Shown here one piece after another: positions 39,001 to 42,000 of a stretch of 64,000 nt of DNA. Position 1 is the first letter of the stretch. The number at the start of each line of letters is the position of its first letter. The stretch is from the NCBI RefSeq assembly GCF_056712565.1, contig NZ_CM160072.1; one strand, 5' to 3'. The position numbers are program-made.

Positions 39001-42000
39001 TAAATCGCACACCCACAGCGCCAGCGCATCCAGTACGGATTTGGGGACGAAAAACACATCGTCGTTTGATTACGGAACCAAATCCACGAATAACACCGGG
39101 GCGCATACGCACAGTCTGAGTGGCTCTACGGGGTCTGCCGGTGATCATACTCATGGTAATGGTATTCGTTGGCCAGGAGGCGGCGGTTCTGCGTTAGCAT
39201 TTTATGATGGCGGTGGGTTCACTTATGTCCAGGATTCACAGTATCAAGTAAGCCCGGGGACTTCTTCCCGTAGATCGTATTATCAACGTATTCAGACACA
39301 GTCAGCAGGTGCTCATACCCACTCGCTGTCTGGTACTGCAGCAAGTTCTGGCGCACATGCACATACTGTAGGTATTGGTGCGCATACGCACTCCGTTGCG
39401 ATTGGTTCACATGGACACACCATCACCGTTAACGCTGCTGGTAACGCGGAAAACACCGTCAAAAACATCGCATTTAACTATATTGTGAGGCTTGCATAAT
39501 GGCATTCAGAATGAGTGAACAAGCACGGACCATAAAAATTTATAATCTGCTGGCCGGAACTAATGAATTTATTGGTGAAGGTGACGCATATATTCCGCCT
39601 CATACAGGTCTGCCAGCAAACAGTACCGATATTGCACCACCAGATATTCCTGCTGGCTTTGTGGCTGTTTTCAACAGTGATGAGGCATCGTGGCATCTCG
39701 TTGAAGACCATCGGGGTAAAACGGTTTATGACGTAGCGTCAGGGGACGAGTTATTTATTTCTGAACTCGGTCCGTTACCGGAAAATGTTACCTGGTTATC
39801 GCCGGAAGGGGAGTTTCAGAAGTGGAACGGCACAGCCTGGGTGAAGGATACGGAAGCAGAAAAAATGTTCCGGATCCGGGAGGCGGAAGAAACAAAAAAC
39901 AACCTGATGCAGGTAGCCAGTGAGCATATTGCGCCGCTTCAGGATGCTGCAGATCTGGAAATTGCAACGGAGGAAGAAACCTCATTGCTGGAAGCCTGGA
40001 AAAAGTATCGGGTGTTGCTGAACCGTGTTGATACATCAACTGCACCTGATATTGAGTGGCCTACGAACCCTGTCAGGGAGTAATCATTGGGATTATGCCG
40101 CAGCACGTCTTAAGCAAGAACGTGCTGCGGTTGGATGCTATTTTTTCCCTGAAGCGGAAAACATTACTACAGTACCTTGAACCTTGGTTTTAACATTCTC
40201 GAAATGCTCTGAGAGTATATGTGTTAAGCCTTCTTCGGAATCTTTTGTGTTTGAAAAGATGCCTTTCTGATTGTAAATGCGCATCAGTTTTTGACCGAAG
40301 CTATTGTGCACAACTCCATCGCCAAGAATTGTGGCTCCGTATAGAGTTCCATCGTCAGTTAAGGCCTGCGCCGCATTGCGTATTACACAGCTTTTTGTAG
40401 ATATATTTCCAGGCAGGCAGTGAAGAAGGTAAAACATGGAAATGGAATCAAATTGACCATGTAACGCCGCGGGATAAGGTTCAAAAACATCATGGCTAAT
40501 TTTATGTTTAATTTTTGATTCCCCAGCCCTTGTAGATGCCGCGTTCAGGCTAGCTTCGTTCAAATCCATTAAAGATATCAGACTACTCTCAGGTACGTGA
40601 GTAAGGTAAAACCCAGTTCCAACACCAATATCCAGATGGTTGTTACCTACATGTTCCAGAAAGTGTGGAAGAAGGTGTTCCTTTGTAGGACATCCCCATG
40701 CAAGCCGATTTGATACTCCCAAAACCCACCAGTCATAAAGCTTTAGGGTAAGTGGTGTGTAAATTTTAGCCCCATCATCTGTGTTTTTTTTCATTGATTT
40801 CACCATGTTATAGTTTTATTTGTGAATTAAATCAATTATGGCGATGAATTACAAGGGGTTAAATGCTGCCGCAGCATAGCGATATTGAAATAGCCTGGTA
40901 TGCTTCGATACAGCAGGAGCCGAATGGCTGGAAGACCGTCACCACACAGTTCTACATCCAGGAATTCAGTGAGTATATTGCGCCACTGCAGGATGCTGTA
41001 GATCTGGAAATCGCAACGGAGGAAGAAAGATCGTTGCTGGAGGCATGGAATAAATATCGGGTATTGTTGAATCGTGTTGATACATCAACTGCACCTGATA
41101 TTGAGTGGCCTGCAAATCCTGTCAGGGAGTAATCATTGGGATTATGCCGCAGACACGTCGTATGCAGGAACGTGCTGCGGTTAGTTTGTGAGCTTTCGAT
41201 AGTGGTTGTTATTTTTGCCCTTATTTGTTCCGGAGGCCATGGTTCAATGGTCCGTCTGCCCCCTGTGGTGATGTCAGCAAAATCAGCCACTGCGCGAACC
41301 ACAATAGCCCGGGAAGATGCTGAAGATCACCAGGTAAAGCTATCAGCGCAGAAACTGGAAGAACTGCTCGCATCAATGGTTAAGGATGAGGTTGATCGCA
41401 ATGATGGGATTTATTGACGTCAGCGAGAGCAGAAGGAAGAACTGAATAACCTGAATGATTTACGCTCAATCAGAGCGATGATGATTGGCAGTAATTAGCG
41501 GTCAATTTCGGTTTTTTTGGCTGTGCGCTCCCCGCCCAGCATTGCGCGTCAATTAGCCCCAAAAAAACGAAAAAGTTACAATCAAGTAAAAAATTCCTTC
41601 TGCAAAACTAAAAAAGATTTCAATAAAATCAGACAGTTAAAAACATAAAAAAAAGGTACAAAAAAACATCTCAAAGTCTTGTTTTTTGCTTCAAATACAA
41701 TTGGTTATTGTGTTTTTTGAAACCTACCAGTCTGGTACATGGATATTGATACCACTGCCAATTATAAACTGGGCGGAGCACAGCAACACGATAGCGTACG
41801 CCTCGATCCGTGGGTGTTTATGTTCTCAGCAGGATATCGTTTTTAATTCCGCACAAAAATGACCCCGTAATTACGGGGTCAATAAGGACATGGTATAAAG
41901 GGTATTATTTCTTCGCTTCTACGCCATCAGTTTCAGAGCGAATTAAGAATTTCTCAGTTGTTTGCGGAATATGCTGAATTAGCCAGTCGGCCATGTGCTT

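Follow-up and report, generated by a model that had tools for sequence, protein, structure and literature searches.

The stretch of DNA analysed here, called the window below, comprises 64,000 nucleotides of contig NZ_CM160072.1 (RefSeq assembly GCF_056712565.1) and is an Escherichia coli chromosome segment of the phylogroup B2 type. It contains a lambda-like prophage that is integrated in ompW, beside yciE-yciF-yciG-trpA. Read from the intact ompW, the prophage encodes int, xis, early genes, Q, a DNA methyltransferase, three tRNAs, lysis genes and terminase, followed by J, lom, stf, tfa, a methyltransferase gene of the ybcY type, a tfa remnant, a DUF4376 remnant and, at the right end, a 3' fragment of ompW. 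The subject of this analysis is the ybcY-type methyltransferase gene together with the tfa-derived sequences around it, here called the ybcY cassette, which lies between tfa and the DUF4376 remnant just inside attR in ompW. Bases 39400-41600 showed 100% DNA identity with UTI89, S88, APEC O1, NU14 and ATCC 11775. The main features of the locus, including an S-adenosylmethionine (SAM) dependent methyltransferase and a second open reading frame (ORF) of 89 amino acids (aa), are as follows.

39499..40083, plus strand: tfa, resident full-length tail fibre assembly gene, 194 aa (phrog_105 'tail fiber assembly', E 1e-100; RefSeq WP_000885580.1)
39918..40133, plus strand: direct repeat copy A, with the last 55 tfa codons, the stop codon and a hairpin (repeat scan and alignment)
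40097..40131, no strand assigned: G+C-rich hairpin at the point where tfa and the methyltransferase gene converge; it marks the left edge of the conserved core (folding)
40138..40806, minus strand: ybcY-type class I SAM-dependent methyltransferase, 222 aa, uninterrupted ORF (RefSeq WP_000240999.1; phrog_2132; K-12 ybcY locus)
40807..40835, minus strand: sigma-70 promoter-like TTGATT-17-TATAAC directly upstream of the methyltransferase (exact match, none expected by chance in the window)
40863..41132, plus strand: 89-aa ORF, tfaX-like remnant (phrog_2341 over its full length, E 4e-61; RefSeq: N-terminally truncated tfa pseudogene)
40967..41183, plus strand: direct repeat copy B, with the 3' end of the tfa remnant, the stop codon and a hairpin (repeat scan and alignment)
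41229..41498, plus strand: DUF4376 tail-fibre-related pseudogene remnant (RefSeq annotation)
41721..41846, plus strand: ompW 3' fragment beside the right prophage end, on the attR side (RefSeq; intact ompW and then int at the other end)

The methyltransferase gene is already annotated and known: it is WP_000240999.1, carries a class I SAM-dependent methyltransferase annotation in UTI89, S88 and APEC O1, belongs to phrog_2132 and is the intact counterpart of ybcY in the DLP12 prophage of K-12. As a sequence-only reading of the window had proposed, it is an uninterrupted ORF located 3' of stf-tfa on the opposite strand, and it is AT-rich, with a G+C content (GC) of 41% compared to 48% in tfa, 54% in stf and 51% in the window. 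The 222-aa protein matched phrog_2132 over the whole profile (positions 1-218 of 218, E 4e-157) with an alignment starting from residue 5. Because phrog_2132 and many homologues begin at this residue, the true start is probably Met5 (ATG at 40794). In the literature on ybcY we found just map positions, one promoter/H-NS listing and one negative phenotype, the latter from the one K-12 mutant test found (PMC2408971). The sequence-only reading had been prepared to give way if the protein turned out to be a common tail-fibre-associated gene of known function. The gene is indeed common and annotated (ybcY, phrog_2132, 71% of complete genomes), but it has no known function.

The repeats on either side of the gene are direct in orientation. 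Global alignment of copies A and B with MAFFT gave 194 matching columns out of 217 (89.4%) and a single 1-nt gap, with longest identical runs of 39 nt and 35 nt. A repeat scan recovered the same similarity as one pair of 197 nt (39907-40103 and 40956-41152, 89%) and another of 29 nt (40104-40132 and 41154-41182, 90%), offset from the longer pair by the 1-nt indel. These results bear out the earlier description of near-identical flanking repeats of about 200 bp that include the stop codon and the hairpin, apart from left-end coordinates that were about 10 nt off. An invertible segment as explanation was ruled out, since the repeats are direct rather than inverted. The resident full-length tfa ends in copy A, and copy B makes up the 3' part of the 89-aa ORF, in agreement with the earlier view that the second copy is a truncated tfa remnant. 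This ORF consists of 26 codons for which no tfa counterpart was found, joined to ~63 codons from the end of a tfa allele, and only its residues 27-89 matched Tfa of lambda, P2, P1 and Mu in tblastn searches. Despite its pseudogene status in RefSeq, phage gene callers annotate it often enough to make phrog_2341. Over the 55 codons shared by copies A and B the differences were mostly synonymous, with a nonsynonymous divergence (dN) of 0.062 and a synonymous divergence (dS) of 0.43 (dN/dS about 0.14). Therefore most of the divergence arose while both copies were functional tfa genes. The pattern argues for an origin of the two copies from two different functional tfa alleles that were joined by recombination, as had been suspected, and not for local duplication.

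Natural variants provided a second line of evidence on the repeats. The sequence predicted for a recombined, empty allele (39300-40133 joined to 41184-41750) was used as a query against all complete E. coli genomes. Uninterrupted matches of 99.1% were found in two strains, EFF60 and 190693, and the occupied form was found in about 375 genomes in the same search. Both strains carry the same ompW-inserted prophage with neither the methyltransferase nor the rest of the 1.05-kb cassette, and in both the DUF4376 remnant directly follows tfa, being its native downstream neighbour there. In a four-way alignment the single tfa end of each strain was like copy A on its left side and like copy B on its right side. 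In EFF60 the switch point lies in the 35 identical nt that surround the stop codon, and in 190693 it lies in the 39-nt identical run upstream of these. As judged from this alignment, the chimeric tfa ends are a signature of homologous exchange between the copies, and the repeats are seen to serve as recombination joints. The signature is equally compatible with a deletion and with the reverse reaction, i.e. unequal crossover or Campbell-type insertion of the cassette. The earlier suggestion of acquisition and loss through the repeats therefore stands as far as variants lacking exactly the cassette and chimeric junctions within the repeats are concerned, while its direction, gain or loss, is not decidable from these alleles.

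Based on these observations we regard it as fairly probable that the ybcY cassette is a 1.05-kb accessory module ('moron') of lambda-like E. coli prophages, which encodes a small-molecule methyltransferase and is recombination-mobile via its tfa ends. The atypical GC (41% against 51% in the window) and the absence from the similar prophages of EFF60 and 190693 are both features of a moron. In the mechanism that we propose, the cassette would shift between phage backgrounds through homologous recombination. It would end in a tfa 3' fragment on the promoter side and in a tfa-type hairpin on the other, so that crossing over into any resident tfa, at its conserved 3' end, would place the cassette downstream of that tfa and create the direct repeats; a crossover between the two repeats would remove it.

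Screening of complete E. coli genomes showed methyltransferase DNA in 3835 of 5426 (71%), with up to four copies each, and the 1291-nt module was covered to at least 80% in 2735 genomes. The cassette is also present in sequenced lambdoid phages (ev243, 2G7b, Kati, Turner and the PhiR series), among them inducible or isolated phages, where it has tail-fibre genes on one side and ompT, appY, an alpha/beta hydrolase or int on the other. The gene thus ranks among the most widespread E. coli prophage cargo genes, often occurs in more than one copy per genome, and is linked to the virulence-associated ompT and lom. A conserved core (40098-41087: hairpin, gene, the spacer upstream of the gene and the beginning of the tfa remnant) was 97-99% identical in K-12, O157, ev243 and Kati, and the flanks of this core vary between backgrounds. 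In O157 and in phage Kati the shared cassette begins at window position 40092-40098. Between the real tfa and the cassette there is a katN/yciEFG-like block in O157:H7 and an invertase region in Kati, and Nissle 1917 carries the cassette in an eroded remnant of the order int'-tfa'-MTase-ompT (MTase, methyltransferase). Across these backgrounds the methyltransferase alleles showed only 2-4 differences in 666 nt, and with so few differences dN/dS among E. coli alleles was uninformative.

Two side observations concern the neighbours of the cassette in other backgrounds. In the prophage of O157:H7 strain NE1127, tfa and cassette are separated by phage-borne paralogues of a manganese catalase, yciE, yciF and yciG. 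The window has the same stress genes on the flank of its ompW attachment site, which suggests that host DNA was picked up by imprecise excision next to an attachment site (att). Further, a 494-aa alpha/beta hydrolase (Abhydrolase_1 with a TAP-like C-terminus) recurs beside the cassette in several phages and prophages, often together with ompT. A link between methyltransferase and hydrolase was considered and dropped, the latter being a generic Abhydrolase_1/TAP-like protein and absent from the window.

The closest known arrangement is tfaD'-ybcY-tfaX' in DLP12 of K-12. It encodes the same methyltransferase (98.6% aa identity over 216 residues, tblastn) in the same orientation, with a tfa fragment on each side and the same promoter motif, and is collinear with window 39645-41109 at 96.9% DNA identity. 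In K-12, however, the gene is frameshifted, both tfa pieces are fragments, and the defective prophage lies at argU beside appY and ompT. Here, in contrast, the methyltransferase gene is intact, a complete tfa forms the left copy, the right copy continues through stop codon and hairpin into the DUF4376 remnant, and attR lies in ompW. In the lambda gene order the b-region is situated between the tail-fibre genes and att. The cassette shares this site with lambda b-region genes and morons (lom, bor, ea47/ea31/ea59), as well as the strand opposite to the late genes, a lower GC, a flanking hairpin and dispensability for the phage. It differs from them in that its cargo is an enzyme and in that it is bracketed by homologous tfa ends, which provide a recombination route. 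The occupied and empty alleles, with junctions in the longest identical runs, are a clean natural example of conserved tfa 3' ends serving as linkers for recombination, by which cargo and tail-fibre modules are reshuffled among lambdoid phages.

The hairpin of copy A folded with -30.8 kcal/mol (z -4.5) on the plus strand and -28.1 kcal/mol (z -5.1) on the minus strand, and that of copy B with -25.6 kcal/mol (z -2.0). The hairpin at 40097-40131 is likely a terminator; a consensus terminator scan did not call it, and a clean T-run is absent. On the other side of the gene, TTGATT-17-TATAAC is listed as the promoter of K-12 ybcY in a genomic SELEX study of RpoD, in which the ybcY/tfaX spacer was bound by RpoD holoenzyme and marked as an H-NS site (PMC3946193). 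A second, weak promoter site was found at 40835-40862. In the lysogen the H-NS-bound sigma-70 promoter of the methyltransferase would drive its leftward transcription. The gene is oriented like int and xis, and by the lambda map it would presumably come to lie downstream of both once the excised genome has circularised. By analogy with the lambda b-region genes, early leftward transcription of the pL type could then also read the methyltransferase after excision.

Several results bear on the class of the enzyme. The Pfam matches were to generic class I methyltransferase domains (Methyltransf_12/23/25/11/31), and motif I (E/DxGxGxG) is present as LDIGVGTGFY (residues 58-67), in which G61, G63 and G65 are nearly invariant among 115 homologues. 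The AlphaFold2 (AF2) model (pLDDT 93) has the seven-stranded alpha/beta fold that, together with the profile matches, places the protein in class I. In the family alignment D81 (LMDLN) is invariant and lies at the end of a predicted strand (76-81), which makes it a candidate for the ribose-binding acidic residue of beta-2; D81, H129, G157 and D189 are invariant across the 115 homologues, down to 34% identity. The same alignment showed two conserved segments, the N-terminal YTP..L..YD..VL..SN...W.CPT and LLHCLPG. Neither a (D/N/S)PP(Y/F/W) motif IV nor a PC dipeptide occurs in the 222-aa sequence read directly, and no similarity to known DNA methyltransferases was found in sequence or fold. These data support, at the level of sequence and model, the earlier assignment as a class I SAM methyltransferase that is not a DNA methyltransferase.

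Homology searches placed the enzyme among methyltransferases of small molecules and lipids. An exhaustive HMMER search returned 1326 cluster representatives, 197 of them below 1e-30, and the AlphaFold database (AFDB) has family members from Pseudomonas, Legionella, Vibrio, Streptomyces and many fungi. Sequence and profile searches of the PDB gave nothing beyond generic Rossmann-core matches, and NCBIfam gave sub-threshold matches only (CpaM, RquA and PmtA, all <20 bits). The best neighbours with solved structures were PmtA, JHAMT, NodS, DhpI, Coq5, UbiG and polyketide C-methyltransferases, i.e. small-molecule and lipid methyltransferases, in line with the earlier expectation that the target is a small molecule, RNA or protein rather than DNA. 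Among the AFDB neighbours was a full-length homologue, the fungal 'Methyltransferase verB' (VerB, A0A1V6NVX3), with 36% identity over 228 columns, a Foldseek E of 1e-25 and template modelling (TM) scores of 0.91/0.89. VerB/DovB, AurB, CtvB and AstB O-methylate the alpha-pyrone hydroxyl of polyketides, with the experimental demonstration for DovB (PMC12312803), and a cluster description is given in PMC8176439. The enzyme encoded here shares with these fungal proteins full-length homology to VerB, a size of ~220-235 aa and SAM dependence. The fungal genes differ in that they are located in polyketide synthase (PKS) clusters and act on a defined pyrone substrate, whereas the gene here stands alone as prophage cargo and has no PKS in its vicinity. 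In bacteria, one homologue forms a fusion with a cytochrome P450; a partial type I PKS ORF immediately precedes it, and a second P450 and a phosphopantetheinyl transferase come after it. Such a PKS context was seen solely for this distant P450 fusion, and the enterobacterial homologues stand alone. By analogy with the pyrone O-methyltransferase relatives, the protein would be a soluble small-molecule methyltransferase, most likely one that O-methylates an acidic hydroxyl or enol oxygen. The field in which to look for its function is narrowed by its kinship with polyketide-type small-molecule O-methyltransferases, by its assignment outside the DNA methyltransferases and by the apparently self-contained nature of the unit. 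Neither this kinship nor the tfa-linker example alters current concepts.

The enterobacterial homologues (56-68% identity) are lone chromosomal genes, which are stable and single-copy in Salmonella and Enterobacter. One of them, from Enterobacter hormaechei (65% identity), is a conserved lone chromosomal gene with a MerR regulator, a gene of the NAD-dependent epimerase family (Pfam Epimerase/NAD_binding_10), DJ-1/PfpI and a zinc alcohol dehydrogenase as neighbours, a set reminiscent of electrophile or quinone stress genes.

Several findings weigh against a mobile module with a small-molecule methyltransferase as its cargo. The K-12 copy is a frameshifted pseudogene, and the gene is therefore dispensable at least there. 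Among the empty alleles, that of 190693 deviates from a simple single-crossover pattern by one additional base of the copy B type and one unique base. The flanks of both empty prophages have diverged by 3-7% from the window, so EFF60 and 190693 represent relatives and no recent derivatives, and a direction of gain or loss is not assignable. With respect to expression, use of the promoter was deduced from in vitro binding in K-12 alone, and its -10 element abuts the annotated ATG of the methyltransferase. With respect to function, the gene lies outside any polyketide cluster (its neighbours are tfa, the tfa remnant and the DUF4376 remnant), and a conserved partner gene was not found around homologues in Salmonella, Yersinia, Aeromonas, Enterobacter and Klebsiella; a metagenomic contig with a homologue was left aside as too short.

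Some of these points would also fit a functionless, decaying passenger that hitch-hikes in a recombination-prone joint. The frameshift in K-12, many truncated variants among database proteins, the missing phenotype in the K-12 mutant test (PMC2408971) and the absence from some sister prophages speak for such a passenger. The gene is nevertheless intact in the window and in isolated phages, retains the residues that are invariant throughout the family, and is kept in 71% of complete genomes, eroded remnants such as that of Nissle (int'-tfa'-MTase-ompT) included, and its 56-68% identical homologues in Salmonella and Enterobacter are stable single-copy chromosomal genes. We therefore consider a passenger unlikely, although it deserves some weight.

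Within the reading as an accessory module with a small-molecule methyltransferase, a more specific role might be that of a phage-spread detoxification or signal-editing enzyme which O-methylates heterocyclic enols, for instance toxins or signals of the pyrone, quinolone or resorcinol type that competing microbes produce. This role is speculative and, in our estimation, rather doubtful. If true, it would represent an advantage for lysogens in chemical warfare and would explain the retention of the gene in 71% of E. coli, even in eroded remnants.

The sequence-only reading had instead suggested that the enzyme could modify host surface or envelope components. On this view it would act on an envelope lipid or surface component, for example as a phospholipid N-methyltransferase, and alter the surface of the lysogen. 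The top Foldseek match in the PDB was indeed a phosphatidylethanolamine N-methyltransferase (8ys9, E 1e-11, TM 0.61-0.65), which also appeared in the profile search, and the cassette often adjoins outer-membrane cargo (ompT, lom). However, this fold match is generic and no better than those to dozens of unrelated small-molecule methyltransferases, and the NCBIfam PmtA model scored 15.7 bits against a cut-off of 390. The nearest characterised relatives, full-length homologues at 36% identity, are O-methyltransferases acting on polyketide pyrones, and neither a signal peptide nor a transmembrane segment was recognisable by eye in the 222-aa sequence. Little speaks for the suggestion, and we regard an envelope target as improbable.

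A role as an anti-phage defence or counter-defence factor, for instance by modification of a signalling molecule or a toxic nucleotide-like molecule, appears very improbable. The variable cargo region between tail-fibre genes and att is a common site for accessory genes (general statements in 10.1101/2024.10.15.618418), and after excision the gene points in the direction of early leftward transcription. On the other hand PADLOC gave no significant match (best 12.9 bits), no partner genes were found, and outside phages the close homologues occur as ordinary genes of the chromosome. A local tandem duplication of the resident tfa end with later insertion of the methyltransferase, as might be suggested by copies that are direct and in register through stop codon and hairpin, is hardly credible given their synonymous divergence of 0.43 (dN/dS about 0.14) around an enclosed gene that is >99% identical across phages, and given that the right-hand fragment accompanies the methyltransferase even in phages that have their own tfa at another place or none at all (O157, Kati, ev243).

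Three further annotations overlap the cassette or its repeats.

39842..40040, plus strand: Rfam RF02111 (IS009), matching the coding strand within tfa (223.8 bits, gathering score 117)
40886-41089, plus strand: second, weaker RF02111 match in the tfa remnant (112.5 bits, just below the gathering score of 117)
40056-40193, plus strand: 45-aa 'hypothetical protein' ('nucleocapsid protein' in K-12 records) that spans the hairpin and overlaps the 3' ends of tfa and the methyltransferase gene (RefSeq)

RF02111 is listed as a small RNA (sRNA) gene and lies inside the tfaD' pseudogene in K-12. The match probably reflects conserved tfa coding sequence and not a separate RNA gene. A weak Rfam match to CssrB, a Shigella chromosomal sRNA, was seen at the tfa end and hairpin (window 40067-40129, plus strand, 32.6 bits against a gathering score of 76). 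The 45-aa ORF is probably a spurious gene call.

Elsewhere in the same prophage, an annotated DNA methyltransferase gene (window 9770-10819, plus strand) is located just after Q and is followed by tRNA genes for Ile, Arg and Arg; phage DNA modification therefore does not need the ybcY-type enzyme. Within stf there is a tandem direct repeat of 132 nt with 90% identity (window 38000-38263, plus strand), and the length of stf in sister prophages was 3027, 3108 and 3171 nt. The internal repeat and the differing lengths suggest variation of the repeat number in the fibre shaft.

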